Shown piece after piece: positions 2,836 to 37,750 of a DNA stretch of 64,000 nucleotides (positions within the stretch are counted from its first letter, which is position 1; the number at the start of each line of letters is the position of its first letter). The position numbers and the translations under genes were made by a program. Source of the stretch: Candidatus Poribacteria bacterium (GTDB lineage Bacteria; Poribacteria; WGA-4E; GCA-2687025); the NCBI GenBank assembly GCA_016866785.1, contig VGLH01000003.1:4795-68794 (forward strand), in the 5' to 3' direction. The notes below the pieces were generated by a model, which made no database searches, was not told where the DNA came from, and saw nothing but the letters and a program-made list of their open reading frames with translations.

Positions 2836-3858
2836 TCAAAGGGCGCGGGTCGCGCCTTCGCCTGTCCAGGCGGGCAGGTCGTCGCCGGTTCCTTCGATCC
2901 AGTCGGGCGTCAGGGCGACGTGGTCGATGGTCCGGCGATTGTTCGTGAACGAGACGTGCAGGAGCCCATCGCGCGACTGGATGATCGCCGGATAGTGGAA
3001 CCGCCCCTCCCCCGTCATGAGGTCGCGGGTGGTGTACCATGTCTCGCCGTCGTCATCGCTGATCGCCAGCGAGAGCGGGTTCCGCTGCGATGGATCGCGA
3101 TTGAACGCCAGCACGACGCGACCGTCCACCAGTTTCACGGCGTCCAGAGCCGCGTGCGGACATCCCAGCTCTGTCACCTCCGCTGGCGACCACGTTCGTC
3201 CGCCGTCCGCAGACACGCTGCGGAGCACGTTGGGATGCCTGCCGGACGGACGCAGCAGCGCGACGATCCGCCCATCAGCCGCCTCGATCAGCGATGGGTG
3301 CTGGTTCGGCTCGCCGGGCACCGCGCCAACCAGGTTCCACGTCGCCCCGTCGTCGGAGCTCCGCCACATGCGGGAGTGCCCATCCATGAACTCCGTCCCG
3401 AAGATCAGATCACCGGAGGAGAGTCGTATCGGCTTGCTGTGGGGCACATGCCCCAGATCTCGCGTCAGGAACTCGATATCCGACCACGAGGAGCCGCCGT
3501 CGTCCGAGTGGCACATCCGTAGATCGCACGTCACCCATCGGACGCCGGGACCGTAGGGTCCATCCAGCTTGCCGTGCATCGTCCCGTAGATGACGAGAAT
3601 CCTGCCCGACTCGTTCTCGTAGAGGATGCCGTTCCCTTCGGGCTTGCCGGGCGTGTCCGCGACGATGGACAGGGGCCCGAACTCGCCGCCGGGAGGCATC
3701 CGGGCGATGACCCACGCCGCGTCGGGTCGCGCCTCGCCCTCGCCGGCGTAGTATCCCACCAGCAGACCGCCCGTACGCGTTTCGACCAGCGTGGAGCAGT
3801 GGCACGAAGGGAACCGCTCGGAGGGTTCCGCCACGGCTTCCCAGGAGAGGATCGGCAT
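2836..3858 (-). CDS. BNR/Asp-box repeat glycosidase-like protein (sialidase/GH33-like beta-propeller)
   Basis: Four Asp-box motifs (SDDGGSSW, SDDGATW, SADGGRTW, SDDDGETW). Start taken at MPILSWEAV (ATG about 3858); upstream ORF extension is Arg-rich junk. Confidence 0.7.
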   Translation of the reverse strand: MPILSWEAVAEPSERFPSCHCSTLVETRTGGLLVGYYAGEGEARPDAAWVIARMPPGGEFGPLSIVADTPGKPEGNGILYENESGRILVIYGTMHGKLDGPYGPGVRWVTCDLRMCHSDDGGSSWSDIEFLTRDLGHVPHSKPIRLSSGDLIFGTEFMDGHSRMWRSSDDGATWNLVGAVPGEPNQHPSLIEAADGRIVALLRPSGRHPNVLRSVSADGGRTWSPAEVTELGCPHAALDAVKLVDGRVVLAFNRDPSQRNPLSLAISDDDGETWYTTRDLMTGEGRFHYPAIIQSRDGLLHVSFTNNRRTIDHVALTPDWIEGTGDDLPAWTGEGATRAL

Positions 3859-3872
3859 AGTCGCTCCGGGAT

Positions 3873-4628
3873 TCAGTTCGTCCAGGTGTTGCGGAACGGG
3901 TCGCCAGCGTCGCGCCGGGCTTGGGTCGTCATGCGCGTCCAGTCCGTCGCTTCGTCGGCGGCATGGGTCGAGCGAGTCAGGCGCGGGCAGTGCCGACAGA
4001 GCTCGGCGAAGATCGCGTGCGCGATGATCAGGTTGCCGACTCGGTTCGCGTGAACTCCGTCTGGGTGGATCAGCCAGTCCGCTTCGCCCTGGGCTGCCCA
4101 AACGTCCGCCAGCAGTGCGCCTTGTTCGCGCGCCAGATCGCGCAGGGCGTCGTTGTAGCGGATGGTCGCCTCGCGGCTCCCCTTGTCGTAGGGCGGGAAG
4201 CTGCGCCAGCCCGTCATGTGATAGATCGTCGTGACGACCATGACGGGATCGCAGGCTTCCCGCACATCGCTCAGGATGGTTCGACAGTCGTCGATGAACC
4301 CGGAAATCGCCATCCCGGCGCGCATGTCGTTGAGCCCGTAGCAGAAGACGAACAGGTCGGGCTCCGCCGCGATCACGTCGTCGCGGTATCGTTCGAGGGC
4401 GCTGGGCTTCGCGGACTGCGCGTAGCCGGGACTGCGCGGACTGATGGCGTTCGCCCCGATGCCCCGGTTGAGGTACTCCAGGGGCTCGGACTGGGCGCTC
4501 TGAAGCAGGCGATGGAGAACGTCGGCGAAACGGTCGGAGACGTCCGGGACCCACGGTCCGCCTTGGACGGTGCTCTCTCCCAGGACGACGAACCGGCGGA
4601 AGGGCTCGTCGAGGCGCAATCGGCTCAT
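3873..4628 (-). CDS. SGNH/GDSL-family hydrolase (lipase/esterase/acylhydrolase)
   Basis: Block III GLNDM and catalytic DGVH (DxxH) near the C-terminus. N-terminal VVLGEST block. Confidence 0.7.
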   Translation of the reverse strand: MSRLRLDEPFRRFVVLGESTVQGGPWVPDVSDRFADVLHRLLQSAQSEPLEYLNRGIGANAISPRSPGYAQSAKPSALERYRDDVIAAEPDLFVFCYGLNDMRAGMAISGFIDDCRTILSDVREACDPVMVVTTIYHMTGWRSFPPYDKGSREATIRYNDALRDLAREQGALLADVWAAQGEADWLIHPDGVHANRVGNLIIAHAIFAELCRHCPRLTRSTHAADEATDWTRMTTQARRDAGDPFRNTWTN

Positions 4629-4634
4629 CGCGTC

Positions 4635-5345
4635 CTACCTATCGTCCGTGCGCTCTCCGCCAACGCGGCGCTGACGGCGGAGCATCGAGGGTTCCCTGCC
4701 GTCGTCGGCTGGGGCTTCGTCGGCGCCGGAATACTCGCCGAGGACGACAACGGGATAAACGCTGTCGAACCCAGCGATCCGACCCTTGATGCGGACACGC
4801 TCATCGCGCGGCGGCGACGCCCGCAGATCGTCGTACACCGCGTTCGGGTGGAACACCAGGTCCTCGCCCGATCCGTCGGCATAGACGCGATGCCATAGCC
4901 CGGAAGTCACCAGACCCCGCGCCTGCACCCATCCGGGAACCCAGCGGAAGCTTCGGCGCGTGAAGCCCAGATGCGCGCGCAACTCGCCTGTCGCCTCGAT
5001 ATCAGTGCGATAGAGCAGCCGCCCGTCTTCGACGCCGCGCGTGTCGCGGATGCTGTGGACGATGTCGTAGATGTCGAGATAGTCGCCTTCGGGCGTGATC
5101 TCGACGATGGTGCGCCAGGGGTTCCGGCGACCGTCTTTGTCGCGAACCGCCTTGAACTCGATGTTCGACGGATCGACGTACGGGCTCAGCAGCTTCTCGA
5201 TCTGCCAACGGCTGCGGTTCGTCATGCCGCCGTAGAGGTGCAGACTCAGCTTCTCGACTTCGGCGCGCGCGAGGGTGACGGCTCCCGCCGCAAGAACGAG
5301 CGCACACGCCGTCAGGACGAGCCAATGGTTCCGATGAGGTCGCAT
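4635..5345 (-). CDS. Hypothetical secreted protein
   Basis: Signal peptide MRPHRNHWLVLTACALVLAAGAVTLARA. No recognisable catalytic motif. Confidence 0.5.
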   Translation of the reverse strand: MRPHRNHWLVLTACALVLAAGAVTLARAEVEKLSLHLYGGMTNRSRWQIEKLLSPYVDPSNIEFKAVRDKDGRRNPWRTIVEITPEGDYLDIYDIVHSIRDTRGVEDGRLLYRTDIEATGELRAHLGFTRRSFRWVPGWVQARGLVTSGLWHRVYADGSGEDLVFHPNAVYDDLRASPPRDERVRIKGRIAGFDSVYPVVVLGEYSGADEAPADDGREPSMLRRQRRVGGERTDDR

Positions 5346-5501
5346 ATCCAGCCTCCTTGCACTGCACATCCTGCGCTCTGGTCAGCATCGTGGGCGGACA
5401 CTCGACCAACGTGCTACGTCGTGCAGAACGCGGCTTGAGAGCCTCGACAACCGCACGCGCCATCGGCATTCTGACGCGTCGGCTCCCCCGCGTCAACCGA
5501 A

Positions 5502-7940
5502 TCACCGGTCGATCAGCAACCGACGGGTTTGCCGCATTCCTGAGCCTTCCAGCACGACCCAATAGACCCCGGACGCGACCGGCTCGCCGCGTTCGTTGCG
5601 CCCGTCCCAGTGCAGCGCCGTCGCCCGAGTCGTGTAGTCTCCTGCGGAGAGTTCACCCAGCGACCAGCGACGAACCAGTGTCCCGGCAACGTCGACGATC
5701 CGCGCGTCGAGAGTCGCCGTCTGTCCGAGCCGGAAGGGAATCCACACCTCCGGGTTCGCCGGAGACGGATACGCGGACAGAAGCTCAAGAGCCTTCGAGC
5801 GCGAATCGTCAGCCCATCCCGGCGCCGAGATCGGATGCACCGACAGGTCGGAGCCGACGAGCTCGCCTCCGAGAATCGACGATGCGCCCGTAGCCCGCAC
5901 GCGCAAGGCGTACTCCGACGCCGGCAGCGGCGTCCCAGCGACCGACACGAGCGACACGCCCGTTGCGTCGGGAAGCGTCAGCACATTCGCCGTCGGTGGA
6001 ACCAGCTCGTACACGGTTCCGGTGGGAAATCGGAATCGCGCCGCCCAGAGGCGCATCGCGGCTGGCGGCGATATGAGAAATGCGCCGTCGGGCTCGCGCA
6101 ATGCCCGCAGACGAACCGTTCCGGTTGCCGTGGGCGGAGCCGCCGGCACGCTTTTCTCGCCGAAATGCTTGGCGACGATGACCAGATCGGCGATGTCCAC
6201 GACGCCGTCGCCGGACAGGTCGGGGTTCAGCCCGATGAACGGACCCGACTCGCCGAAACGCTGCGCGACCAGCACCAAGTCCAGGATATCGACCGCGCCG
6301 TCGCGGTTGACGTCGCCGGTAAAGGACACCGACGGCATGCCGTGGTCGTCGAAGATGGAGAGCATCTCGGCTCGCTGCGGGTAGCCGCGTTCGATCCATC
6401 CGTCGCGGAACTTCTTGACGGTTTTGGGACGATAGGCGACGAAGAGCTCCCACACGCGCGGGAACTGGTTGGCGATCCCGTCGTCGTCCACATCGCGCGT
6501 CGTGTCCACGCTCTGGGAACCGTCGGAGAGGTCCCACAGGACGCTGGCGACCGCGCCTTCGACGATGCTGCCGTCCGAGTTGCGTCCCTTGCCGTCGATC
6601 GTGCCGGTCCACCAGTCGTTCGTCTCGATGTTGGGCAGGTTCGCGTTCCGGTAGGACCGGACGTTCAGCGCTCGGTCGTCCACCAGCGCCTCCATGAACT
6701 CCGCCCATCCCTCACTGACGGCGAACTCCGAATCGGAGACCGTATGAAGCGTGTGACCGCCGTCCACCCCGTTGCCGAAGGGGATCGCGTCGAACCGGTC
6801 GCCGTAGGCTGATGTCATCACGGCATGTCCGTACTCGTGCAGCGCGGCTTCGCGCAGGATGCCGTCGTTGAACCCGATGCGGATGACCTCGAACGAGACG
6901 ATGCCGATGCGGGCGTCTACGCTGTAGTAGGTTCCGCCGTCGAGAGATGGGTACTCGACTGTGACGCTCTTCCGTTCGAAGCCCACCGTGCGGCGAAGGT
7001 AGTCGCGCTCATCGAGCATCGCGCCGAAGATGCGACCGATGGCGTGCCGTTCGTCGTCGAGTCCCCAATGTACCGCCAGATCGGTCGTCGTCCCGCCGGC
7101 AGCGGGAGCCCAGTCCGTGCTCCGGCGGTACAGGGTTCCCCGGTGATCCGTCATCGTGAGGTGCGCGTTGCGAACCAAGACATTGATGCGGTACGTGCGA
7201 GCCGTCCCGTCGGCTCCCTTCGCCGGAACGTCCACAAAGGCGAAGCGCCCATCGACGTCGGTGAAGACCGTCTCGATCACCTGCTCGATCAGAAAGGCTC
7301 CGCGAGCGACTCGTTCCGCGAGCTGGACGGTGACCTCCCGAATCGGCAGCGCGATGCCCTCGACGTCGTCGTGGTACGTGACGCGTCCGGTGAACCGGGC
7401 ATCGCCGGGCGCGACGACCGCCGCTGGAGCGCGTTTCACCTGGGCGTCGAGTGTCCGTCCTCCGGATGCATCGATGGGGAATGGAGTGGCGCTGTCTTGG
7501 GAACTGGACGCCTGCACGCGCAGGTAGCGGACGAAGAGCTCGGGTTCCGGCTTCGTGGAACCGGTTCCGCCGACCGGAGTCAGCGCGGCGACGATGTCGT
7601 AGTTCCCGGGTCGGCTGACGCCGACCGCGACGCTCCGCACGAGTTCGCCATCCGACGGGACGTACACCATCTCTGTCCGCGCGGACAGCACCGAAGCGCC
7701 CTTGCCAACCCGCCATTCGAGCCGCGCAACCGTGCTCGTTCCCGTCATCGCGCGTACGCGCAGCAGATACCCGCCGACCCGGGCGAGGCTGGGAACCACC
7801 TGCGGATCGACCGACCCGACGAACCATGGGTCCCGCTGCCGGGCGCATCGAGTTTCCATGCGCTCGGCGGTCGCTCCCAAGGACGCGCACCACAGGAGCA
7901 CCAGCGCCAGAACCGTCCATCGACCCTTCACCGGAGACAT
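5502..7940 (-). CDS. Secreted multidomain zinc metalloprotease (HExxH) with dockerin-type repeats and a Por-secretion-tail/FlgD-Ig-like C-terminal domain
   Basis: Signal peptide MSPVKGRWTVLALVLLWCASLGATA. HEYGH zincin motif (ALHEYGHAV). Two dockerin type I repeats DVNRDGAVDILDLVLV and DLSGDGVVDIADLVIV. C-terminal about 90 aa (YPSPANPEVWIPF...VASGVYWVVL) matches the T9SS CTD / FlgD-Ig pattern. Confidence 0.75.
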   Translation of the reverse strand: MSPVKGRWTVLALVLLWCASLGATAERMETRCARQRDPWFVGSVDPQVVPSLARVGGYLLRVRAMTGTSTVARLEWRVGKGASVLSARTEMVYVPSDGELVRSVAVGVSRPGNYDIVAALTPVGGTGSTKPEPELFVRYLRVQASSSQDSATPFPIDASGGRTLDAQVKRAPAAVVAPGDARFTGRVTYHDDVEGIALPIREVTVQLAERVARGAFLIEQVIETVFTDVDGRFAFVDVPAKGADGTARTYRINVLVRNAHLTMTDHRGTLYRRSTDWAPAAGGTTTDLAVHWGLDDERHAIGRIFGAMLDERDYLRRTVGFERKSVTVEYPSLDGGTYYSVDARIGIVSFEVIRIGFNDGILREAALHEYGHAVMTSAYGDRFDAIPFGNGVDGGHTLHTVSDSEFAVSEGWAEFMEALVDDRALNVRSYRNANLPNIETNDWWTGTIDGKGRNSDGSIVEGAVASVLWDLSDGSQSVDTTRDVDDDGIANQFPRVWELFVAYRPKTVKKFRDGWIERGYPQRAEMLSIFDDHGMPSVSFTGDVNRDGAVDILDLVLVAQRFGESGPFIGLNPDLSGDGVVDIADLVIVAKHFGEKSVPAAPPTATGTVRLRALREPDGAFLISPPAAMRLWAARFRFPTGTVYELVPPTANVLTLPDATGVSLVSVAGTPLPASEYALRVRATGASSILGGELVGSDLSVHPISAPGWADDSRSKALELLSAYPSPANPEVWIPFRLGQTATLDARIVDVAGTLVRRWSLGELSAGDYTTRATALHWDGRNERGEPVASGVYWVVLEGSGMRQTRRLLIDR

Positions 7941-8044
7941 ACACTCCCTCTCGCACCAGATGCTCCACGCCGGCTTTGCGTGTCGTCGGAGCTCACAGTA
8001 TTCTACTCAACGTTCGTGCGACGAGCCATGAGGACAGCGAAACC

Positions 8045-8869
8045 GTGAAACGAGCCCGCCGAGTCTTGCCCATTGTCCTGCCGTTTCTCGCCGCCTTGGT
8101 GCTCGCGGCGATCTGGATCGGTTGCGGCGACGACATCACGAACGGACCGGGACCCGTCGATGTTCCCCTGGATCCGAAGATTCGCTCATCCGACGGCGCG
8201 ATCATGGTGCTCATCGACGAGGGCGTGTTCACGATGGGCGACCCCGATGCCCCGGCTCGAGCAGACAACCGCCCCGCGCACGCGGTGGCTCTGAGCGCGT
8301 TCTATATCGACGAAGCCGAAGTGACGAACAGCCAGTACGCAGCCTTCCTCACAGCAACGAAGCGCGCCGCCCCTAAGTTCTGGAACGACGACCGCTACAA
8401 CGGGCCCAATCAGCCGGTCGTCGGCGTCACATGGTCCGATGCGAGCGCGTACGCGCGCTGGGCGGGCAAGACCCTGCCGACCGAAGCCCAGTGGGAGAAA
8501 GCGGCGCGCGGCGGCATCGCTGGCGCACGCTATCCGTGGGGCAACGCCGCGCCCTCCGGGACGAACGCCATCTTCGGCGCGACTCGCGCGACCCCTGCAG
8601 ATGTCAAATCGACCACGCCGAATGCGCTGGGCATCTTCGACATGGGCGGGAACGTCTGGGAGTGGTGCGCCGACTACTACGACGCGACCTACTACAACAT
8701 CTCGCCGGATCAAGACCCGCGCGGTCCGCTGGCGGGCGCGACGCGCGTCCAGCGCGGGGGTTCCTACGCGAGCGATGCGTCCGCGCTCGAAGTATCCCAG
8801 CGGAGCCATCAGGACCCGGCAGAAGCCAACGCCGTAACCGGGTTCCGGTGCGCCAAGAGCGCTTTCTAA
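8045..8869 (+). CDS. Formylglycine-generating-enzyme (FGE/SUMF1)-domain lipoprotein
   Basis: GTG start with GAGGA about 10 nt upstream. Lipobox LAAIWIGCG. FGE-sulfatase family blocks (PAHAVALSAFYID, GVTWSDASAYARWAGKTLPTEAQWEKAARGG, GNVWEWCAD, RVQRGGSY). Confidence 0.8.
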   Translation: MKRARRVLPIVLPFLAALVLAAIWIGCGDDITNGPGPVDVPLDPKIRSSDGAIMVLIDEGVFTMGDPDAPARADNRPAHAVALSAFYIDEAEVTNSQYAAFLTATKRAAPKFWNDDRYNGPNQPVVGVTWSDASAYARWAGKTLPTEAQWEKAARGGIAGARYPWGNAAPSGTNAIFGATRATPADVKSTTPNALGIFDMGGNVWEWCADYYDATYYNISPDQDPRGPLAGATRVQRGGSYASDASALEVSQRSHQDPAEANAVTGFRCAKSAF

Positions 8870-24335: not shown

Positions 24336-24363
24336 CGAGTCGTCCACCAGGGATGCCGGTCTC

Positions 24364-24918: not shown

Positions 24919-25586
24919 AGCGAAAGAGCCCTTCCAGACCATCGGATCAATGCTGCCCAAAGGACGAGCAGCGACGCGGCGAAGGTCGTGCCCGACCGGA
25001 GCCCGCTCAGCACGGGTATAACCGCAGACGGGATCGAACACTGGGGCTCCCGCAGATGGTAGCCCGCCAGCGCTCCGCTGACGACCCACGCTCCCACGGC
25101 GAACATCGGAACCATGCCGGAGCCCGCAGGCACACCGAATTCGTTCCAGTGCCACAGCCCGACGCGCGAACCGACCCCCTCGAACGCGATTCCCGCCGCC
25201 AACGCCACGACGCCGGCTGTCAGCGACGAGGCGGCGACGCCCGACTTCTCGCGCACGGTCACGTAGGCGAACAGGCTCACGGCGAGCAGCGCCCCCCGAA
25301 CGGCTTCGACGCCGATGGCGACGGGCGCTCCGGGAACCTCCGGTCTCAGGTGGAAAAGCGCTCCGCTCTGCGCGAGCATCGTGTCAGCGATGGCGACAAT
25401 GCAGGCGGCGACGACGCCGGACGCCAGCGCCGACCGCACCGGTGGCATCGCCCCAAGCGCGACGCGCCCCAGGAGCGCCCACGCAACGAGGGCCCCTAGG
25501 AGAACGACCCACCGGTTCCCGGTCCACATCGCCGCGAGACCGACGAGGCTCGCCCCTGCAACAGCGGGCACGTGTCTTACGAACAT
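24915..25586 (-). CDS. Hypothetical polytopic membrane protein
   Basis: About 6 predicted TM helices. No motif recognised. Confidence 0.5.
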   Translation of the reverse strand: MFVRHVPAVAGASLVGLAAMWTGNRWVVLLGALVAWALLGRVALGAMPPVRSALASGVVAACIVAIADTMLAQSGALFHLRPEVPGAPVAIGVEAVRGALLAVSLFAYVTVREKSGVAASSLTAGVVALAAGIAFEGVGSRVGLWHWNEFGVPAGSGMVPMFAVGAWVVSGALAGYHLREPQCSIPSAVIPVLSGLRSGTTFAASLLVLWAALIRWSGRALSL

Positions 25587-26452: not shown

Positions 26453-27148
26453 CTATCGACGGAGGACAGCCCACGTCAGCGGCAGCTTGCCGCCCGGTTC
26501 CACCGCAGCGGGCTTGCCGACGATATGGGACGCCGGCTCCGTCCAGTCAATCGGGCCCCACCCGTCGGCGTTGCCTTCCTGATACGCGGCGATGCGGATC
26601 GTCTGCCCTTTCTGGAACATCTTGGTCTGCTGGAACCCCTGCGGCACGACGAACTTGTTGAAGTCCACCGAGAGCTCGATGGAGTCGCCGGAGTAGGCGT
26701 GGGGGAAATCGGCGAAGACGACCTTGCCGGATTCGAGGTGATAGACCTCGATCCCGTCGTCTGCGCCGTTGCGTCGTCCGATCTGGATATAGAACTCGGA
26801 CCCGATGACGTCCTTCACGCCCGTCGGAGTGCCTTCGTACGCGTCGTTCTTGATGCCGGTGGCGGCGCTGTTATCCGCATCGATCAGCACATGGTAGTAG
26901 TAGCGGAACGCGTCGCCGGGAGCCGCCGTCCCGTAGACCGTCTGGAGGACGAACAGTGTCGTGTCCGAGCTGGCGACCTTGATCTCCTTGTAGTCGCCGT
27001 GGATGTTCGCGGCGGTCATGTCTTTGGGGTCCGACACCGCGACCGGTACTTTCGACCAGTCGTCGATCTTCCCGTCGATGGTGATGTTCTGCGCATAGGC
27101 AACGACCGACAGCATCGCCGCTGCCGCGACGATCAGATGGAGAAGCAT
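26453..27148 (-). CDS. Secreted protein with a CBM9/DOMON-like carbohydrate-binding-type domain
   Basis: Signal peptide MLLHLIVAAAAMLSVVAYAQ. IDGKIDDW motif as in CBM9-like domains. Start chosen at ATG 27148. Confidence 0.5.
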   Translation of the reverse strand: MLLHLIVAAAAMLSVVAYAQNITIDGKIDDWSKVPVAVSDPKDMTAANIHGDYKEIKVASSDTTLFVLQTVYGTAAPGDAFRYYYHVLIDADNSAATGIKNDAYEGTPTGVKDVIGSEFYIQIGRRNGADDGIEVYHLESGKVVFADFPHAYSGDSIELSVDFNKFVVPQGFQQTKMFQKGQTIRIAAYQEGNADGWGPIDWTEPASHIVGKPAAVEPGGKLPLTWAVLRR

Positions 27149-27191
27149 GATCTGTCCTCCGGGTTGCCGTGCCGTGAACGGGCCCGATCGA

Positions 27192-27560
27192 TCATGTCTC
27201 GAGTTCGATGGTCTCCGGCGTCGAAGAGCTGAACCCGACCATGATGACCAGTTCGCCGGAGCCGACGTTCTTCGTGTAGTGCACGACGTTCTGCGGGATG
27301 TGGATGCAGTCGCCGGGCTCCATCGAGAACTCATCGTCTCCCAGACCCTGGCGTGCCGAGCCCTTCACGACGTAGATGATCTCCTCGGCGTTCGGATGCC
27401 GATGCCGCCCGTGGCCCCCGCCCACCGGGAACGTCGCCGTTCCCAGCGCGAGATGCCGCGACGGCGTGTTGTCTGCGTGGCAATGCCAACGCAGCACCGT
27501 GTGCGGGAGATGCACCACAAGCGCTTCATCACCGCGCACTAGCGCATGGCTTTCCGCCAT
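27192..27560 (-). CDS. Cupin-domain protein
   Basis: Cupin motifs G(X)5HXH (GGGHGRHRHP) and a second His motif (HIPQNVVH). Confidence 0.7.
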   Translation of the reverse strand: MAESHALVRGDEALVVHLPHTVLRWHCHADNTPSRHLALGTATFPVGGGHGRHRHPNAEEIIYVVKGSARQGLGDDEFSMEPGDCIHIPQNVVHYTKNVGSGELVIMVGFSSSTPETIELET

Positions 27561-27584
27561 CGAAGCCTCCTCTCTCACACCGCC

Positions 27585-27986
27585 TCAGGGATCGACTTTG
27601 GGTCGCACGTCGGGCTCGATCTGATAGGCTTCCGCGACTCGGTTCATCGCGTTGAACAGATCGACGACGGCGATCAGCTCGCCCAACCCCTCGGTCGTCA
27701 AGCCCAGCCGCTGCAGTGCCGCCGTATGCGAGTTGATGCAGTAATCGCATCCGTTGGTGATCGAGACCGCCAGCGCGATGATCTCCTTCGTCCGGCGGTC
27801 GAGCGCCCCATCCGCCATGATGAGCTTCAGTCGCTCCCAACTCGTCTCCAGGTGCGTGGGATTGGTCGCCAGCGCGCGCCAGATGTTCGGCACGCGATCC
27901 AGCCCCCGCGTGCGCTTGATGTCGTCGAACACCTCGCGAACCTTGCCGGTCGCTTCCGATTCGGGAACCAGTCGCACGGTGGGCAT
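27585..27986 (-). CDS. Carboxymuconolactone decarboxylase-family protein (AhpD-like peroxidase-related)
   Basis: CxxCxxxH motif CDYCINSH characteristic of the AhpD/CMD fold. Confidence 0.75.
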   Translation of the reverse strand: MPTVRLVPESEATGKVREVFDDIKRTRGLDRVPNIWRALATNPTHLETSWERLKLIMADGALDRRTKEIIALAVSITNGCDYCINSHTAALQRLGLTTEGLGELIAVVDLFNAMNRVAEAYQIEPDVRPKVDP

Positions 27987-27995
27987 GCGCAAGTC

Positions 27996-28925
27996 CTATG
28001 CTTCGCGAACGACCGGGTTGGAGAGCACGCCGATCCCCTCGATTTCCACGTCGACGACGTCGCCATGCGCCAGCTTCTCGCCGCGCGCCTTGCCGACGCC
28101 AGACGGGGTACCAGTCGAGATGACGTCGCCTGGTTCGAGGGTAATATGGCGCGTGATCCAGGCGACCAGCTCGGCGCAGGTGAAGATCATCTCGCTCGTG
28201 CGCGCCCGCTGTTTCTCGACGCCGTTCACGCGGAGCGTCAACAGCAGGTCATCCGGGTTCGCAACCTCATCTCGCGTGACGAGGCAGGGCCCCATCGGCG
28301 CGAAGGTGTCGAGCCACTTGCCGTTGAGCCAGTCGAACCACCGATCGCCTTCGCGCGGTTCGCGTTCGCGGTCGAGCAGCAGGTTCCGCTCGGAGACGTC
28401 GTTCAGGATCGTGTAACCGGCGACGTAGTCGAGGGCGTCGGATGCCGCGATGTACTTGCCGCGCTTGCCGATGACGACCGCGAGCTCGCCTTCCCAGTCG
28501 ATCCACCCGGCGTACCGAGGGATCACGATGGCTTCGCCATGCGCGATGGTCGTCGTTCCCGGCGGCTTCATGAAGACGCGCGGCGTCGTGGTCTTCTTCT
28601 CCGGCGCTTCGCCGCCGCCTTCTCGAATGTGTTCGGCGTAGTTGCCGGCGAGGCAGAGCAGCTTGGGAGCCCGTGGAACCGGCGCGGCGATGGGAGCCGT
28701 CGTCCAATGCGCCTTGGCGGGTGACGCAGCCGCCAGGTCGTGCACTCGACGGGCAGCAGCCATGCCGGCGTCTCCGGCGTCCAACAGCGTCTGCATCGTC
28801 GTCAGGGCGAGCCCACCATCGTCGTCGATGTTGGCGAGGTATGTCCGCGCCGCGTCCACAACGCGCCCATCGACCTCGATTCCCAGATGCGTCCCTGATC
28901 TGCCCTGAAAGCTCACGAGCCGCAT
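27996..28925 (-). CDS. Fumarylacetoacetate hydrolase (FAH)-family protein
   Basis: DWEGELAVVIGKRGK and LNDVSER metal-binding blocks. Start at MRLVSFQG (28925). Confidence 0.8.
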   Translation of the reverse strand: MRLVSFQGRSGTHLGIEVDGRVVDAARTYLANIDDDGGLALTTMQTLLDAGDAGMAAARRVHDLAAASPAKAHWTTAPIAAPVPRAPKLLCLAGNYAEHIREGGGEAPEKKTTTPRVFMKPPGTTTIAHGEAIVIPRYAGWIDWEGELAVVIGKRGKYIAASDALDYVAGYTILNDVSERNLLLDREREPREGDRWFDWLNGKWLDTFAPMGPCLVTRDEVANPDDLLLTLRVNGVEKQRARTSEMIFTCAELVAWITRHITLEPGDVISTGTPSGVGKARGEKLAHGDVVDVEIEGIGVLSNPVVREA

Positions 28926-29093: not shown

Positions 29094-32000
29094 GTGCCGA
29101 GGGGCCCGAGCGGCAACCCTACCGATCCGCTCGCGAATACAGGAATCACTGCGGCGCCTGCTGTGCCAGGCGTTCCCGAGGGCACCCCATTGAGCGTCCG
29201 ACGTACCGAGTACCGCGACGTCGTCTCCGTGCGCGGCGCCCGGGTTCACAACCTCCAGAACATCGACCTCGACCTGCCGAAGAACTCCCTGATCGTCTTC
29301 ACGGGCGTCAGCGGCTCCGGGAAGTCGTCCCTCGCGTTCGACACGCTCTACGCCGAGGGACAGCGCCGCTACGTCGAATCCCTTTCCGCCTACGCGCGGC
29401 AGTTCCTGGGACAGATGGAGAAGCCGGACGTCGACTTCATCGGCGGCTTGTCGCCGACCATCTCCATCGACCAGAAGTCGACGGGTCACAATCCGCGTTC
29501 CACCGTCGCGACGATCACCGAGGTCTACGACTACCTGCGGCTCCTCTTCGCGCGCGTCGGGGAGCTTCACTGCCTCGAGTGCGGCAAGCCCGTCGGCATG
29601 CAGACCCGCGACGAGATCATCGACCGGTTGATGGAGCTCCCGGACGGTCAGCGCGTCCAGATCCTGGCTCCCATCGTTCAGGGCAGGAAGGGCGAGTACC
29701 GCGAGGAGCTCGCCGACGCCCTCAAGGCGGGATTCGCTCGCGCCCGCATCGACGGGCAGGTCTTCGAGCTGACCGACACGGTCGATCTGGATCGCAGCCT
29801 GAGACACAACATCGAGATCATCGTCGACCGTATCCAGGTCCGCGAAGGCATCCGCGACCGGCTCAGCGAGTCCATCGAGACGGCGATGAAACTCGCCGGC
29901 GGCACGATGATCGCCGACCTGATGGACGGGACGGAGCACTTCTTCAGCCAGAAGTACGCCTGCGCCGAGTGCGGCATCAGCTATGAGGAACCCTCACCAC
30001 AAGCGTTCTCCTTCAACAGCCCGAAGGGCGCGTGCTCCGCCTGCAACGGTCTCGGCGAGACGATCCGCATGTCGCCAGCGAAAGTCGTCGCGGACACATC
30101 GAAGTCGATCCGCCAAGGCGCGATCGCCTTCTGGGGCGATCTGGGAACACTCCGAGTCCGTCACGTCGCCGAGAGCCTAGCCGTGCACATGAAGTTCTCG
30201 CTCGACACGCCGTGGCGCGATCTCCCGGAGACCACGAGGGAGGCGGTTCTGTACGGCTGCGGACGCGAGCGCATCCACTTCGTCTACAAGAACCATCGGG
30301 GACGCGAGTTCCACTATGACAGCCGGTACGAAGGCGTCATCCCGCCGGAGGAGCGCCACTACTTCGACGCGGACAACGAGAACGCCCGCCGGTGGTACTC
30401 CCGCTTCATGGACGCCCAGTCGTGTCCGGAGTGCCACGGATCAAGGCTCCGACCCGAAGCGCGCGCCGTCCACATCGCCGGCAAGACGATCCTCGACGTG
30501 ACCGAGATGAGCGTCCAGGACGCGCGGGCGTTCTTCACCGACCTGCCGCTGACGAAGCGTCAGGAGACCATCGCGGAGCAAGTGCTCAAGGAGATTCGGG
30601 GACGTCTCTGGTTCCTGTCGAACGTCGGACTGCACTACCTCAGCCTGAACCGCACGGCTCCGACGCTCTCCGGCGGCGAAGCTCAGCGCATCCGGCTCGC
30701 CAGCCAGATCGGAACGGGGCTCGTCGGTGTTCTCTACATTCTGGACGAGCCGAGCATCGGGCTTCACGCGCGAGACAACAAGAAACTGCTCGACACGCTC
30801 AAGCATCTGCGCGACATCGGAAACACGATCATCGTCGTCGAGCACGATGAGGAGACGATGCGCGCCGCCGACTTCATCGCCGACTTCGGTCCCGGAGCGG
30901 GCGTCAAGGGGGGTAATCTCGTCGTCTCAGGCTCTCCCGCCAAGGTCGCTGCGACGCCGGAGAGCATCACGGGCCAGTACCTGGCTCACCAGCGCGCGAT
31001 TCCCATACCGGAGAGCCGTCGCGCTCCCAACGGTAAGTGGTTGGGGATCCGCAACGCCCGGCAGAACAACCTCAAGTCGCTCGACATCGACCTGCCGCTG
31101 GGCGTCTTCACGGCGGTGACGGGGGTCTCGGGCTCCGGCAAGTCGTCGCTCCTCAACGACATCCTGGCGAAGGCGCTCCTGCGCGACCTGATGCGCGCCG
31201 AGGAGACGCCCGGCGACTACGACGCCATCGAGGGCGTCGAGCATCTCGACAAAGCCATCGTCATCGACCAGTCGCCTATCGGCCGGACGCCCCGCTCAAA
31301 TCCTGCGACCTACGTGAAGCTGTTCGATCACATCCGCAATCTCTTCGCCGAGCTGCCGGAGAGCCGGGTTCGCGGCTACCAGCCCGGACGATTCAGTTTC
31401 AACGTGAAGGGCGGGCGCTGCGAGGCGTGCGAAGGGAACGGACTCAAGCGCGTCGAGATGCACTTCCTCGCCGACGTGTGGGTGAAGTGCGAAGTATGCA
31501 ACGGCGCGCGGTTCAACGACGAGACGCTCGCCGTCCTCTACAAGGGCAAGAGCATCTCCGAAGTCCTCGACATGGACGTCCAGGAAGCGTTGACGCACTT
31601 CGCCGACATCCCGAAGATACGGCGCGTGCTGAAGACGCTCCACGATGTCGGGCTCGACTACATCAAGCTGGGGCAGCCGGCTCCGACGCTTTCCGGCGGC
31701 GAAGCCCAGCGCGTCAAGCTCGCGAAGGAGCTCGCGCGCGTCGCAACGGGACGCACGCTCTACATCCTCGACGAACCGACGACCGGGCTCCACTTCGAGG
31801 ACGTCCGCAAGCTGCTCGAAGTCCTCCACAAGCTGGTGGACAAGGGCAACTCCGTCATCGTCATCGAGCACAACATGGAGGTCATCAAGACCGCCGACCA
31901 CATCATCGACCTGGGGCCCGAAGGTGGCGAGGAAGGCGGCTATCTCGTCGCGATCGGCACGCCGGAAGAGCTCGCGCACGGCGTCGTCGTCGGAGAGCTC

Positions 32001-34910
32001 CCGTCCGCGACGGGGCGCATCCTGCGCCAGGTTCTCGGCATCGACGGCGAGTCGCGACCGGAGCTCAGCGACCACACCGACGACTCGACTCCAAGATCGG
32101 AGCTCATCGACGAGATACGCGTCGTCGGAGCGCGCGAGCACAACCTGCAAAACGTGAGCGTCAACATCCCCCAGGGCAAGATGGTCGCGTTCACGGGCGT
32201 GTCCGGTTCCGGAAAGACCTCGCTCGCCATCGACACGATCTACGCGGAAGGTCAACGGCGGTACGTCGAGTCACTCTCCGCCTACGCGCGGCAGTTCTTG
32301 GGGCAGATGGAGAAGCCCCGCGTCGAGCACATCGAGGGGCTCTCTCCCGCCATCGCCATCGACCAGAAGCAGCCCAGCAAGAGCCCGCGCTCGACCGTCG
32401 GAACCGTCACCGAGGTCTACGACTACCTGCGCGTGCTGTTCGCCCGCGCGGGGACGGCGCATTGCCCGGAGTGCCATCGACCCGTCGGGAGCCAGTCCGT
32501 CCAGCAGATCGCCGACAACATCCTGCGCCTGCCCGAAGGGAGCCGGCTCCACGTCCTCGCGCCGGTGCAGTTGGCGCGCGGCGAGGAGTACGCCGAGGTT
32601 TTCGACCGCGCCGCAAAGCGCGGGTTCGCCCGCGTCTGGATCAATGGTAAGGTGGAGGAGCTCCCAACTGCCGTCGTCCTCGACCGGCGCATCCGGCACG
32701 ACGTCGGGATCGTCGTGGATCGTGTCATCCTGCGCAAAGACGAGCGTTCGCGGCTCTCGGAAGCCGTCGAAGTCGCGCTCCGTGAGGGCAAGGGCGTTCT
32801 GCGGATCGTGGGCGTGTCGCCCAACGAGGATGGCGACGAGACACCCGTCTCGGAGTCCTTCAGCGAGCATTTCGCATGCGTGCCCTGCGGTCTGAGCTTC
32901 AAGCCGCTGACGCCGAAGAACTTCTCGTTCAACAGCCCGTTGGGCATGTGCCCGCGCTGCGAGGGCATCGGGCGGGTCGTCGGAGCCGACCAATCCCTCA
33001 TCGTGCCGAACCCTCGCAAGTCGATCCGCGCGGGAGCCGTCCTCGTGTGGGGCGAGGTGACGTCGGAGCATCCGATGTCGCCGTTTCTGGTCGTGCTCGC
33101 CAAGAAGATGGGCTTCTCGCTGACGACGCCCTTCGAGAAGCTACCGGACGAAGTCCGCGAGATCATCCTCTACGGCTCGCGCGAGGTCTTCGACGTAAAC
33201 GGCGGCAGAGCCCGGTTCCGAGGAGCCGCCGGAGGAACCGACTGGGTCCACGTGCGCGGCGCCTTCGCGCGGGATATCCGGCCGTTTCTCCGCGAGGTGG
33301 ACTGCCCGACGTGCCGGGGTTCCCGGCTCCAGCCCTTTGCGCTGAGCGTGCAGTTGGGCGGCAAGACGATCGTCGAGTGGACGCGCATCACGATCCGCGA
33401 GGCGCTCGACGCGATGATGTCGCTCCGGCTGACGGGTCAGCTCGAAGCCGTGGCGCGCGACTTGCGGGAGGAGATATCGAACCGGCTGCGGTTCCTCTGC
33501 GATGTCGGGCTCGACTACCTGACGCTCGCGCGCCCAGCTCCCAGCCTGTCCGGTGGCGAAGCGCAGCGGATTCGCCTGGCGTCGCAGTTGGGTTCTGGGC
33601 TGACTGGCGTGCTCTATGTCTTGGACGAGCCGACCATCGGTCTGCATCCGCGCGACAACGACCGGCTCATCAAGGCGCTGCACCGGCTCCGCGACCTGGG
33701 GAACACGGTTCTGGTGGTAGAACACGACGAGGAGACGATCCGCACGGCAGATCACATCCTCGACTTCGGACCGCGAGCCGGCACGCACGGCGGCGAGATC
33801 GTCGCACAGGGCTCCCTGTCGGTCCTCGAGTCCACGAAGTCGTCGCTGACCGGGCAGTATCTGTCCGGCGTCGAGGCGATTCCCAAGCCCCCGAAGCGTC
33901 GGCGCGGCAGGAACGCGGCGCTGGAGATCATCGGCGCAACCCATCGGAACCTGAAGAACGTCGACGTCTCCATACCGCTTGGAACGCTCACCTGCGTCAC
34001 GGGCGTGTCGGGCTCCGGCAAGTCGTCGCTCATCGAGGAGACGCTCTATCCGGTCTTGGCGCGCAAGCTGAATGGGGCGTCGACGCACGCAGGGGCGCAC
34101 CGCGCCATCCGGGGCATGGAGCATCTCGACAAGGTCATCAACGTCGATCAGAAGCCCATCGGCGAGACCCCCCGGAGCAATCCGGCGACCTACACGGACG
34201 TCTTCACCGACATCCGTTACCTCTACGCGGAACTGCCGGACGCCCAAGCGAGGGGCTTCGACTCGCGGCGGTTCAGCGCGAACCTCGCCGAAGGTCAGTG
34301 CGAGACGTGCCGGGGCAACGGCTACACGCGGATCGAGATGCAGTTCCTGCCCGACGTGTGGATCGAGTGCGACGCCTGCGCCGGAAGCGGCTACAACAAG
34401 GCGACGCTCCAGGTGCGATACCGCGACAAGAGCATCGCCGACGTGCTCAAGATGACCGCCGCCGACGCGCGCGAGCACTTCGCGAAGATCCCCAAGGTCG
34501 CGCGGAAGCTCCAGACGCTCTGCGATGTCGGACTCGACTACATCCAGTTGGGGCAGTCGGGAACGACGCTGTCCGGCGGCGAGGCGCAGCGCGTCAAGCT
34601 CGCCCGCGAACTCGCCCGGCGGTCGAGCGCGGGGACCGTCTACGTCATGGACGAACCGACGACGGGTCTGCACTTCGACGACGTGCGCAAGCTGCTGGAA
34701 GTGCTCCACCGGCTCGTCGATCAGGGGAGCACCGTCGTCGTCATCGAGCACAACATGAACGTCATCGCCGCAAGCGATCACGTCATCGACCTTGGACCCG
34801 AAGGCGGCGACGCGGGAGGCTACGTCGTCGGAACCGGCACGCCGGAGGACATCGCGCGGATCGACGCATCGCACACGGGTCGGTTCCTGCGACCCATCCT
34901 CGGGCACTGA
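29094..34910 (+). CDS. uvrA: Tandem-fused double UvrA (two complete excinuclease ABC subunit A units in one 1,938-aa polypeptide)
   Basis: Each half has Walker A GVSGSGKSS/GVSGSGKTS with YAEGQRRYVESLSAYARQFLGQMEKP, two ABC signatures (LSGGEAQRIRLAS, LSGGEAQRVKLA), zinc-finger cysteine pairs (CLECG..CAECG..CSACNG in half 1; CPECH..CVPCG..CPRCEG in half 2), a UvrB-binding-length insert and an insertion-domain region. The second unit starts about 32100 (IRVVGAREHNLQN). The start codon is uncertain: GTG 29094 or TTG 29185 with GAGGGC upstream. Confidence 0.85.
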   Translation: MPRGPSGNPTDPLANTGITAAPAVPGVPEGTPLSVRRTEYRDVVSVRGARVHNLQNIDLDLPKNSLIVFTGVSGSGKSSLAFDTLYAEGQRRYVESLSAYARQFLGQMEKPDVDFIGGLSPTISIDQKSTGHNPRSTVATITEVYDYLRLLFARVGELHCLECGKPVGMQTRDEIIDRLMELPDGQRVQILAPIVQGRKGEYREELADALKAGFARARIDGQVFELTDTVDLDRSLRHNIEIIVDRIQVREGIRDRLSESIETAMKLAGGTMIADLMDGTEHFFSQKYACAECGISYEEPSPQAFSFNSPKGACSACNGLGETIRMSPAKVVADTSKSIRQGAIAFWGDLGTLRVRHVAESLAVHMKFSLDTPWRDLPETTREAVLYGCGRERIHFVYKNHRGREFHYDSRYEGVIPPEERHYFDADNENARRWYSRFMDAQSCPECHGSRLRPEARAVHIAGKTILDVTEMSVQDARAFFTDLPLTKRQETIAEQVLKEIRGRLWFLSNVGLHYLSLNRTAPTLSGGEAQRIRLASQIGTGLVGVLYILDEPSIGLHARDNKKLLDTLKHLRDIGNTIIVVEHDEETMRAADFIADFGPGAGVKGGNLVVSGSPAKVAATPESITGQYLAHQRAIPIPESRRAPNGKWLGIRNARQNNLKSLDIDLPLGVFTAVTGVSGSGKSSLLNDILAKALLRDLMRAEETPGDYDAIEGVEHLDKAIVIDQSPIGRTPRSNPATYVKLFDHIRNLFAELPESRVRGYQPGRFSFNVKGGRCEACEGNGLKRVEMHFLADVWVKCEVCNGARFNDETLAVLYKGKSISEVLDMDVQEALTHFADIPKIRRVLKTLHDVGLDYIKLGQPAPTLSGGEAQRVKLAKELARVATGRTLYILDEPTTGLHFEDVRKLLEVLHKLVDKGNSVIVIEHNMEVIKTADHIIDLGPEGGEEGGYLVAIGTPEELAHGVVVGELPSATGRILRQVLGIDGESRPELSDHTDDSTPRSELIDEIRVVGAREHNLQNVSVNIPQGKMVAFTGVSGSGKTSLAIDTIYAEGQRRYVESLSAYARQFLGQMEKPRVEHIEGLSPAIAIDQKQPSKSPRSTVGTVTEVYDYLRVLFARAGTAHCPECHRPVGSQSVQQIADNILRLPEGSRLHVLAPVQLARGEEYAEVFDRAAKRGFARVWINGKVEELPTAVVLDRRIRHDVGIVVDRVILRKDERSRLSEAVEVALREGKGVLRIVGVSPNEDGDETPVSESFSEHFACVPCGLSFKPLTPKNFSFNSPLGMCPRCEGIGRVVGADQSLIVPNPRKSIRAGAVLVWGEVTSEHPMSPFLVVLAKKMGFSLTTPFEKLPDEVREIILYGSREVFDVNGGRARFRGAAGGTDWVHVRGAFARDIRPFLREVDCPTCRGSRLQPFALSVQLGGKTIVEWTRITIREALDAMMSLRLTGQLEAVARDLREEISNRLRFLCDVGLDYLTLARPAPSLSGGEAQRIRLASQLGSGLTGVLYVLDEPTIGLHPRDNDRLIKALHRLRDLGNTVLVVEHDEETIRTADHILDFGPRAGTHGGEIVAQGSLSVLESTKSSLTGQYLSGVEAIPKPPKRRRGRNAALEIIGATHRNLKNVDVSIPLGTLTCVTGVSGSGKSSLIEETLYPVLARKLNGASTHAGAHRAIRGMEHLDKVINVDQKPIGETPRSNPATYTDVFTDIRYLYAELPDAQARGFDSRRFSANLAEGQCETCRGNGYTRIEMQFLPDVWIECDACAGSGYNKATLQVRYRDKSIADVLKMTAADAREHFAKIPKVARKLQTLCDVGLDYIQLGQSGTTLSGGEAQRVKLARELARRSSAGTVYVMDEPTTGLHFDDVRKLLEVLHRLVDQGSTVVVIEHNMNVIAASDHVIDLGPEGGDAGGYVVGTGTPEDIARIDASHTGRFLRPILGH

Positions 34911-34930
34911 CATCGGGAGGGTTGCGGCGG

Positions 34931-37750
34931 ATGAGAAAGCTCTATCTCCTCGACGGCATGGCGCTCGCCTACCGCGCCTACTTCGTGTTCATCCGCAACC
35001 CGATGCTCAACTCGAAGGGCTTCAACACAGCCGCCATCCACGGCTACGCGACGACCCTCCTGCAGGTGCTTGAACACGAGAAACCGACCCATATCGCTGT
35101 CGCGTTCGACACGCCCGAGCCGACGCAGCGCCACATCGAGTACCCCGAGTACAAGGCGCAGCGCGAGGCGATGCCCGAAGACCTGAGCGCGTCGCTGCCC
35201 TACGTCTTCCGGCTGACCGAGGCGTTCAACATCCCCGCGCTGCGGATGCCGGGCTACGAGGCAGACGACGTCATCGGCACGCTCGCCCGACGCGCGGAAC
35301 GCGACGGGTTCCAGACCTACATGGTCACGCCCGACAAGGACTATGCCCAGCTCGTCGACGAGAACACGTTCGTGCTCAAGCCCGGCAAGTCCGGCGACGG
35401 AACCGAGGTCATCGGCATCCCACAGGTGTTGGAGCAATGGGGCATCGAGCGCGTCGAGCAGGTGATCGACGTCCTCGCGCTCTGGGGCGACAGCTCAGAT
35501 AACGTCCCCGGCGTTCCCGGCATCGGCGAGAAGACGGCGAAGGCGCTCGTCGCGAAGTACGGCTCCGTCGAAGGCTTGCTGGCGAACACGGCCGAGCTGA
35601 AGGGCAAGCAGAAGGAGAATGTCGAAGCCTTCGCCGACCAGGCGCGGCTCTGCAAGCGGCTCGTGACCATCGACTGCGATGTGCCCGTCACTGTCGGCAT
35701 GGACGATCTGACGGTTCGCGAACCCAATCGCGATGCGCTCCTGGAGCTCTTCCATGAGCTCGAGTTCCGCTCGCTGGGCAAGCGCGTCTTCGGCGACGCC
35801 TACGAGCTCGCCCTCACGACCGCCGCTCCCGCTGCCGCAGCCGACGACGATGCGGACGACGCCAACGGCGACGATGAGGCGGGCGAAGACGAGATCGTCG
35901 ATGAGGAAGCCGGAGACGCGGTCGCCATCACGGGCCCCGTGCGGACCATCGAGGACACACTCCACACGTACACCGTCGTCGACACGCACGAGGCGCGTCG
36001 GGCGCTCGCCGATGACCTGGCGACCCGCGAGCGCTTCTGCTTCGACATCGAGACGACGGGTCTGCATCGGTCGGCGGAACCCATCGGCTTGGCGTTTTCG
36101 TATTCGCCGGAAACCGGCTTCTACGTCCCACTGCCCGTTGAGCCGTCGGCGATCCAGGCGACACTGGAGACGTTCCGCCCTGTCTTCGAGAACCCAGCCA
36201 TCGAGAAGGTGGGTCACAACATCAAGTTCGACCTGGCGGTGCTGAAACGCCAAGGCATCGAGGTCGCCGGGGTGCTCTACGACACGATGATCGCCCACGC
36301 GCTCATCGAGCCGTCGATGCGCCACAGCATGGACTACCTCTCGCAGGTCTACCTCGGCTACAAGCCGGTCTCCATCGAGTCGCTCATCGGAGAGCGAGGT
36401 CCCGAGCAGAAGTCGATGCGCGACGTGCCGATTCCCGCCGTCGCGGAGTACGCGGCGGAGGACGCCGACGTGACGTTCCAGTTGCGGGGCTCGCTCGATC
36501 CGCTGATCGACGAGAGGAACGCGCGCCGCATCTTCGCCGAAGTCGAGACGCCGCTGCTGCCGGCGCTCGTCTCGATGGAGCACGCGGGCGTCCGTCTGGA
36601 TGTTCAGGCTCTGCGCGACCTGTCCGCGACGCTCGCCGTCGAGATCGTCGACCTGGAGAAGCGCATCTACGAAGCCGCCGGCATGGAGTTCCATATCGAC
36701 TCGCCGAAGCAGCTCGGTGAAGTGCTCTTCGATGTCCTCAAGCTCGAAGACAAGCCGAAAAAGACGCGCACGGGTCAGTATTCGACGCGGGAGCAAATCC
36801 TGACGCGCCTCGCCGACCGGCATGAGATCGTCGAGTTGGTGCTGCGGTTCCGCGAGTACCGCAAGCTCAAGTCGACCTACGTGGACATGCTTCCGGGCTG
36901 CGTGTCGCCGGAGACGGGGCGCGTCCACACGCACTACAACCAGCTCGTGACGGCGACCGGTCGCATCCAATCCCACGGGCCCAACCTGCAGAACATTCCC
37001 ATTCGAACGGAACGCGGCAGGGAGATCCGGCGGGCGTTCGTTCCGCGCGAGGACGGTTATCGGATTCTCGCGGCGGACTACTCGCAGATCGAGCTCCGCA
37101 TCGTCGCCGAATTGAGCCACGACGACGCGATGATCGCCGCGTTCCGGAACGAGGCGGACATCCATAGCGAGACAGCGTCACGCGTCTTCGGTGTGTCCAC
37201 GTCCGACGTGAACGCCGAGCAGCGACGCAAAGCGAAGATGGTCAACTTCGGCGTGACCTACGGCATGACGGCGTTCGGCTTGGGGCAGCGGCTCAACATC
37301 CCGCGCAAGGAAGCAGGCGAGATCATCGACGCGTACTTCGCTCAATACCCTGGCGTGCGAGGATACATGACATCCGTCGTCGAGTTCGCAAGGGAAAAAG
37401 GCTACGTCGAAACGCTTTTGGGAAGACGCCGCTACCTCCGCGACATCAACTCGAAGAACGCCACGGCGCGAAGCGGCGAGGAGCGGAACGCCATCAACAC
37501 GCCCATCCAAGGAACCGCCGCCGACATGATCAAGATTGCGATGGCGAACATCCACCGGGAACTCCGAGAGCGGAACCTGCGGACGCTCATGCTTCTGCAA
37601 GTCCACGACGAGCTCGTGTTCGACCTCTACGAGCCGGAGCGCGACGAGGTCATGGAACTCGTCGAACGATGCATGAAGTCGGCGATACCGATGGCGGTTC
37701 CCATCGTCGTCGAGATGGGAGTCGGCGCCAACTGGCTCGACGCGCACTGA
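34931..37750 (+). CDS. polA: DNA polymerase I
   Basis: 5'-3' exonuclease N-terminus (MRKLYLLDGMALAYRAYF). 3'-5' exo / Klenow region and polymerase motifs (RRKAKMVNFGVTYG, LLQVHDELVFD). RBS GGGAGG. Confidence 0.95.
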   Translation: MRKLYLLDGMALAYRAYFVFIRNPMLNSKGFNTAAIHGYATTLLQVLEHEKPTHIAVAFDTPEPTQRHIEYPEYKAQREAMPEDLSASLPYVFRLTEAFNIPALRMPGYEADDVIGTLARRAERDGFQTYMVTPDKDYAQLVDENTFVLKPGKSGDGTEVIGIPQVLEQWGIERVEQVIDVLALWGDSSDNVPGVPGIGEKTAKALVAKYGSVEGLLANTAELKGKQKENVEAFADQARLCKRLVTIDCDVPVTVGMDDLTVREPNRDALLELFHELEFRSLGKRVFGDAYELALTTAAPAAAADDDADDANGDDEAGEDEIVDEEAGDAVAITGPVRTIEDTLHTYTVVDTHEARRALADDLATRERFCFDIETTGLHRSAEPIGLAFSYSPETGFYVPLPVEPSAIQATLETFRPVFENPAIEKVGHNIKFDLAVLKRQGIEVAGVLYDTMIAHALIEPSMRHSMDYLSQVYLGYKPVSIESLIGERGPEQKSMRDVPIPAVAEYAAEDADVTFQLRGSLDPLIDERNARRIFAEVETPLLPALVSMEHAGVRLDVQALRDLSATLAVEIVDLEKRIYEAAGMEFHIDSPKQLGEVLFDVLKLEDKPKKTRTGQYSTREQILTRLADRHEIVELVLRFREYRKLKSTYVDMLPGCVSPETGRVHTHYNQLVTATGRIQSHGPNLQNIPIRTERGREIRRAFVPREDGYRILAADYSQIELRIVAELSHDDAMIAAFRNEADIHSETASRVFGVSTSDVNAEQRRKAKMVNFGVTYGMTAFGLGQRLNIPRKEAGEIIDAYFAQYPGVRGYMTSVVEFAREKGYVETLLGRRRYLRDINSKNATARSGEERNAINTPIQGTAADMIKIAMANIHRELRERNLRTLMLLQVHDELVFDLYEPERDEVMELVERCMKSAIPMAVPIVVEMGVGANWLDAH

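Follow-up and report, generated by a model that had tools for sequence, protein, structure and literature searches.

The window analysed here is a 64,000-nucleotide stretch of contig VGLH01000003.1 from Candidatus Poribacteria bacterium (assembly GCA_016866785.1). On its forward strand lies an open reading frame (ORF), here called tandem uvrA-uvrA, in which two UvrA units are joined head to tail within a single chain; it is followed closely by a gene for DNA polymerase I (polA; Table 1). Canonical UvrA consists of two identical chains that pair via their ATP-binding-I domains, with the DNA on the ventral surface and one UvrB per chain. The initial annotation of this DNA had described the ORF as a covalent pseudo-dimer of two class-I-like units, and had considered such a fusion to be old, uncommon and not functionally characterised. 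Our analysis places the protein in a widespread and already annotated class of tandem UvrAs, of which it is a Poribacteria member, and the ORF probably encodes a single-chain, pseudo-dimeric class-I UvrA that serves as the damage sensor of nucleotide excision repair.

Table 1. Features of the tandem uvrA-uvrA gene and of the adjoining polA gene (positions are those of the window; aa, amino acid residues)
Feature	Position	Strand	Remarks
Tandem uvrA-uvrA ORF	29094..34910	+	1,938 aa; GTG start, stop 34908-34910; true start possibly TTG 29190
N-half, complete class-I UvrA unit	29214..32036	+	aa 41-981; NF001503 1447.5 bits, profile 3-941/943
UvrB-binding domain, N-half	29601..29918	+	aa 170-275; R256/E262 equivalent to E. 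coli R216/E222
Insertion (DNA-binding) domain, N-half	30075..30401	+	aa 328-436; full length, PF17755 profile 2-109/110
21-nt run identical to 32277-32297	29385..29405	+	SAYARQF codons; among the few long identical stretches
Inter-half linker	32037..32108	+	aa 982-1005, GIDGESRPELSDHTDDSTPRSELI; acidic, unconserved
C-half, second class-I UvrA unit, somewhat more diverged	32109..34907	+	aa 1006-1938; NF001503 1300.9 bits, profile 4-941/943
UvrB-binding domain, C-half	32493..32807	+	aa 1134-1238; R1220/E1226 present, GRKGE replaced by ARGEE
Insertion domain, C-half	32988..33185	+	aa 1299-1364; PF17755 profile 1-65/110, 60.8 bits; alignment gaps
Codon for E1691	34164..34166	+	replaces the Arg of IGRTPRS
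polA (DNA polymerase I)	34932..37750	+	ATG start 21 nt past the uvrA stop; GGGAGG upstream

Domain composition and conserved residues of the two halves

Both halves are recognised as UvrA independently of each other. The NCBIfam equivalog model NF001503 (cut-off 1147 bits) matches the chain twice, over residues 41-981 and 1006-1936, and each match lies above the cut-off alone; the same holds for TIGR00630 (cut-off 729.8 bits), which gives 1395 bits for the N-half and 1243 bits for the C-half. Pfam detects two UvrA_inter (UvrB-binding) domains and two UvrA_DNA-bind (insertion) domains. The UvrB-binding domain (PF17760) is full length in the N-half and in the C-half. Two full-length, class-I-like units are present head to tail, as the initial annotation had proposed. 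Its further claim of an insertion domain in each half stands for the N-half, in which the domain is complete, and only in part for the C-half: there the match covers the first 60% or so of the PF17755 profile, and the domain is partly eroded, since the match stops at position 65 of 110.

The catalytic motifs are also conserved. The Walker A lysines K77, K683, K1041 and K1643 are all present, and the Q-loop, signature, Walker B and H-loop motifs are intact in all four nucleotide-binding modules, which bears out the ABC modules and signatures that had been noted in both halves. Each half contains six CxxC pairs (three zinc modules), all of which align with those of E. coli UvrA. Single UvrAs have 296 alignment columns with an identity of at least 97%; of these, 286 are kept in the N-half and 268 in the C-half.

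Both halves were aligned with UvrA of E. coli MG1655, in which tested roles include those of K37 and K646 (the proximal and distal Walker A lysines), G502 (damage recognition), R216 and E222 (the UvrB-interaction surface) and R712, R722, R724 and R730 (DNA binding) (PMC3025350). Equivalents of K37, K646, G502, R216 and E222 are kept in both halves. The four DNA-binding arginines are all found in the N-half and three of them in the C-half, where the equivalent of R722 is Q1718.

The best match among solved structures is C. thermocellum UvrA (Ct-UvrA; 1225 bits over residues 41-981). A 2025 cryo-electron microscopy study of this protein lists residues of the ATP-binding-I dimer interface (R54, Y55, S58, F66, G80, L81, P83, I85, L507 and V510), of the DNA wedge (Y62, Q65 and F66) and of a hairpin (F755) (PMC12796330). 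In a set of 33 tandem proteins split into halves, the interface residues are kept in nearly all 33 N-halves and 33 C-halves, and the wedge residues, both Q-loop glutamines and F755 in essentially all of them.

Compared with the canonical class-I UvrA homodimer (E. coli; G. stearothermophilus, 2R6F; C. thermocellum, 9GXK series), the domain order of each half is identical, and the window protein keeps the residues for catalysis, zinc binding, the UvrB surface, DNA binding and the dimer interface. The differences are that its two units are covalently joined by a linker of about 24 residues and have diverged to 52% identity, and that in its C-half the insertion domain is eroded and the Arg of the IGRTPRS motif is missing (see below). 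The class II UvrAs (D. radiodurans UvrA2, DrrC and Ecm16) share the ABC-ATPase UvrA core, the insertion domain and zinc finger 3 with the window protein, but have neither the UvrB-binding domain nor zinc module 1 (PMC9328131), both of which are carried by each half of the window protein.

A genuine fused gene

The two halves are 52% identical in protein over 959 aligned residues. Their codon-aligned DNA is 62% identical (50% at third positions); identity rises to 78-82% in the best 40-codon blocks, and the identical runs are at most 25 nt long. The 21-nt run that the initial annotation had singled out occurs exactly twice, at 29385 and 32277, with an expectation of 0. These values agree with its description of the halves as diverged in DNA and sharing only short identical runs.

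The probability that the double gene is an artefact, produced by the collapse of two uvrA genes or by a stop missed at the junction, is negligible. The window does come from a metagenome-assembled genome (MAG), and some database entries of relatives are single-length, such as the 935-residue 'UvrA' deposited for four Poribacteria MAGs (P0121; MBT3269123.1, MBT5535633.1, MBT5709980.1 and MBT7808079.1). However, two halves with a DNA identity of only 62% offer an assembler nothing to collapse, and more than 100 independent clusters contain this fusion. An identical 1,938-residue protein is present in NCBI as 'excinuclease ABC subunit UvrA [Candidatus Poribacteria bacterium]', and there are seven further clusters of single polypeptides that match it at 67-73% identity over 97-98% of its length; the assemblies with these fused relatives are from JGI, ENA and NCBI, and one relative lies on a 3.66-Mb contig. 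The junction, at which an in-frame stop or start would, in the terms of the initial annotation, have counted against the fusion, was inspected over the whole linker (32037-32108): neither a stop, nor a frameshift, nor an in-frame ATG or GTG, nor a ribosome-binding site was found there.

A split-gene reading of the 935-residue Poribacteria entries was considered and rejected. At the locus examined (L082) the tandem ORF is intact (3073..8808; 1,911 residues), and the 935-residue product is an internal-start call within it. The N-half of this locus (3073-6000) has no called gene in the gene table of the collection.

The frame of the window gene is open throughout, with zero internal stops in the translation. 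Its start is uncertain (GTG 29094 or TTG 29190), because the first 32 or so residues after the GTG are unconserved and differ among relatives. The TTG has GAGGG 8 nt upstream, and the N-terminus that would result from it resembles those of the relatives. A scan for sigma-70-like promoters upstream of uvrA gave none that passed; a TTGACA at 29052 with a weak -10 element was spotted by eye only.

Distribution of tandem UvrAs

Tandem UvrAs are numerous in sequence databases. In a search of 5.8 billion proteins, the best 120 matches are all 1,811-2,394 residues long. The N-half was also used as query in an exhaustive HMMER scan against 1.84 billion representatives (50% identity), and the best 150 were taken: 91 are at least 1,700 residues long, 38 fall between 1,500 and 1,700, 16 between 1,100 and 1,500 (mostly fragments), and five are single-length. 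Tandem UvrAs make up at least about 130 of the clusters at 50% identity. They occur in several phyla, namely Poribacteria, Planctomycetota, Chlamydiota and some Desulfobacterota-type MAGs, and the species-representative genomes with a double UvrA include a Planctomycetaceae MAG, Kuenenia, a Chlamydiae MAG, Poribacteria, a Syntrophales MAG and a 'Deltaproteobacteria' MAG. These counts, together with a curated model for double-length UvrA (NF001885), do not sustain the view that the fusion is uncommon.

The same architecture of two units in one chain is found in the chlamydial double UvrA (CT333; NF001885 / PRK00635, 1,809 positions). In Chlamydia trachomatis, uvrA (ct333) is 5,361 bp long and encodes 1,786 residues, and transposon insertions in it are tolerated in cell culture (PMC6686042). 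In the Chlamydiae MAG protein, the alignment with NF001885 runs collinearly through the junction. The window protein reaches only 1435.9 bits with this model, below the cut-off of 3054, and is therefore outside the chlamydial equivalog. Its relatives include the tandem UvrAs of Planctomycetota (for example Symmachiella dynata, 2,291 residues) and of other Poribacteria, whose N- and C-halves are orthologous to those of the window protein, with an overall identity of 53-73%. Among these, planctomycete tandems (P0058, residues ~1950-2291; L001; other proteins of about 2,300 residues) differ in having an extra C-terminal extension of 350-400 residues with no Pfam match, and many Poribacteria-type relatives of about 1,836 residues lack the C-half insertion domain, unlike the window protein.

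The tandem UvrA architecture is thus known and annotated, and neither rare nor new; what it has been is experimentally neglected. The initial annotation had called it functionally uncharacterised, and our full-text literature search, in an incomplete collection, likewise found no paper discussing tandem, fused or duplicated UvrA. The 2008 review of UvrA classes by Goosen and Moolenaar may mention tandem forms.

Origin of the fusion

The relationship between the halves was analysed with neighbour-joining trees (200 bootstraps; 906 trimmed columns) built from the 33 split tandem proteins and 35 single UvrAs from the fetched loci; one single UvrA (L076) was left out as a mis-extracted ORF. With the Chlamydiae and Syntrophales sequences removed, a clan of N-halves appears in 167 of 200 bootstraps and one of C-halves in 114 of 200, and each half of the window protein is nearest to the matching half of three other tandem proteins (P0002, P0006 and P0008). 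This grouping of N-halves with N-halves and of C-halves with C-halves argues for one old duplication, as does a substitution common to both halves: the GDG motif of zinc finger 3, the D of which is at least 97% conserved in single UvrAs, has become GNG across the tandem family (residues 782 and 1742 of the window protein), which supports the duplication of one ancestral gene. This supports the old duplication that the initial annotation had proposed.

The sequences indicate one duplication-fusion, which is probably older than the sampled lineages of Poribacteria and Planctomycetota or else spread between them; the chlamydial and Syntrophales doubles may go back to the same event or to others. 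They also indicate that purifying selection has probably acted on both halves since the duplication.

Between the last conserved residue of the N-half (~981) and the first of the C-half (~1006), the window protein has about 24 acidic and polar residues. Across 123 tandem proteins the linker ranges from 15 to 69 residues (median 36) and contains no conserved motif, and its composition changes from acidic in the window protein to K/R-rich in planctomycetes. Because linkers vary in both length and sequence, this segment appears to behave as a passive tether.

Asymmetry between the N-half and the C-half

On the evidence of the alignments, the N-half appears fully canonical and the C-half mildly eroded. 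One difference concerns the Arg of the IGRTPRS motif, which lies five residues past the distal Q-loop Gln and which probably corresponds to Bst R691, a mutated DNA-binding residue. This position is Arg in 35 of 35 single UvrAs, in 32 of 33 N-halves and in none of the 33 C-halves, which have N, D, E or H instead (E1691 in the window protein). The loop that holds it is near the DNA backbone according to cryo-electron microscopy (PMC12796330). About 97-100% of C-halves have lost the GRKGE motif from their UvrB-binding domain. Divergence of the C-half is greater in the UvrB-binding domain, the insertion domain and the region of signature II and zinc finger 3; in the window protein, the zinc-finger-3 hairpin region is altered from FSFNVKGGRC to FSANLAEGQC.

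A census of architectures among the best 150 representatives at 50% identity shows how far domain loss extends in the family. The commonest architecture, with 44 representatives, combines a complete N-half with a C-half that lacks the insertion domain, and 30 representatives have two complete units, which is the type of the window protein. In six, a complete N-half is joined to a C-half without the UvrB-binding domain. Both units lack the UvrB-binding domain in a further 27; these are tandem class-II-like proteins of about 1,550-1,700 residues.

Genomic neighbourhood

The polA gene downstream encodes 5'-3' exonuclease, 3'-5' exonuclease and polymerase domains; its product is the gap-filling polymerase of excision repair. 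The short spacing, the GGGAGG upstream of its start and an interval in which no terminator-like site was found fit co-transcription with uvrA, and suggest a uvrA-polA operon of co-transcribed excision-repair functions. A longer ORF of 1,624 residues (32876-37750, forward strand) was rejected as a high-GC read-through: its 5' part overlaps uvrA out of frame, and only the 3' part from 34932 is real (polA).

No second uvrA was found in the window. The two ORFs upstream of uvrA (26453-27334, reverse strand, 293 residues; 27546-28724, forward strand, 392 residues) have no Pfam match at E <= 1e-5. Further upstream, on the reverse strand (22884-25155), a gene for an HslU-like AAA+ ATPase adjoins one for a proteasome-type HslV-like peptidase, an apparent hslVU pair.

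Proposed mechanism and alternatives

We propose that an old tandem duplication and in-frame fusion of uvrA gave rise to a chain in which the N-half and the C-half would each fold as a normal UvrA protomer. The two halves of one chain would pair via their conserved ATP-binding-I surfaces, tethered by the flexible linker, and a single polypeptide of 215 kDa would contain four ATPase sites and two UvrB docking domains. This pseudo-dimer would bind DNA and present its two UvrB-binding domains as in the two-UvrA/two-UvrB complex. Fusion would make dimerisation independent of concentration, and may have permitted mild specialisation of the C-half. A covalent pseudo-dimer, as first put forward in the initial annotation, is the natural reading of a chain in which both units appear complete and class-I-like and keep their interface residues; packing within the chain, a stoichiometry of two UvrB and activity in excision repair are, on these grounds, most likely. 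Some points weigh against it. Conservation of the interface residues is also expected from their other roles, in the DNA wedge and in the ATP-binding core. The literature search found no biochemical study of any tandem UvrA. The adjacency of uvrA and polA, which in the window speaks for a role in excision repair, is absent in three relatives (L082, L086 and L087), and synteny was for this reason rejected as a functional clue.

The protein might instead be a functionally asymmetric UvrA-UvrA' heterodimer, in which the N-half provides canonical clamping and damage discrimination while a specialised C-half makes reduced contact with DNA and perhaps biases the side on which UvrB is loaded. This is rather unlikely for the window protein. 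The consistent divergence of C-halves in the three regions named above speaks for it, as do the loss of the IGRTPRS Arg near the DNA backbone in all 33 of them, the loss of GRKGE and the excess of architectures without a C-half insertion domain (44) over those with both domains complete (30). However, the C-half of the window protein keeps its catalytic motifs, the R216/E222 surface, three of the four DNA-binding arginines, the zinc ligands and a remnant of the insertion domain; there are few differences, and how much they matter for function has been deduced, not measured. Pairing between chains, either as a dimer of tandem chains or by a domain swap that joins nucleotide-binding domain II of the N-half to nucleotide-binding domain I of the C-half, would give eight ATPase sites. 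The topology would allow a swap, as the inter-half linker of about 24 residues is similar in length to the conserved linker between the nucleotide-binding modules within a unit, but very short and highly variable linkers fit intramolecular pairing, the homotypic interface residues Y55 and F66 are strictly kept in both halves, and no evidence points to higher oligomers; we consider pairing between chains improbable. A role outside excision repair, for instance in drug or intercalator resistance like that of the class II proteins DrrC and Ecm16, is more improbable still. UvrA paralogues with other roles do exist (PMC9328131), and the 27 tandems in which both units lack the UvrB-binding domain belong to the same census. 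Against this, both halves of the window protein have a UvrB-binding domain with the R216/E222 equivalents, which are absent from class II, both score as UvrA equivalogs, and there is no adjacent biosynthetic cluster, the neighbour being polA. The single-chain pseudo-dimer acting in excision repair thus remains the reading that we prefer.

Significance of tandem UvrAs

Genome annotation is little affected by these results, since the protein already has a database entry as UvrA, and double-length UvrAs entered the databases with the Chlamydia genomes. The family itself displays a stepwise, asymmetric loss of domains after fusion, of which no description was found in the searchable literature. 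What remains of interest is the systematic asymmetry of the C-half and the prospect of dissecting four ATPase sites individually. In particular, a natural single-chain UvrA dimer is a tool for mutating one protomer at a time, which bears on the roles of the proximal and distal ATPase sites and on the stoichiometry of UvrB.

It is conceivable, though some way short of probable, that tandem UvrAs are natural, obligately asymmetric damage sensors, the two sides of which are unequal in DNA clamping or in the hand-off to UvrB. On this tentative proposal, the C-half would have systematically given up the DNA-proximal Arg, GRKGE and, in most lineages, the insertion domain after fusion. If it is correct, tandem UvrAs would reveal which of the functions duplicated in the UvrA dimer are needed only once, and their four ATPase sites could be mutated one by one, which is impossible in a homodimer.

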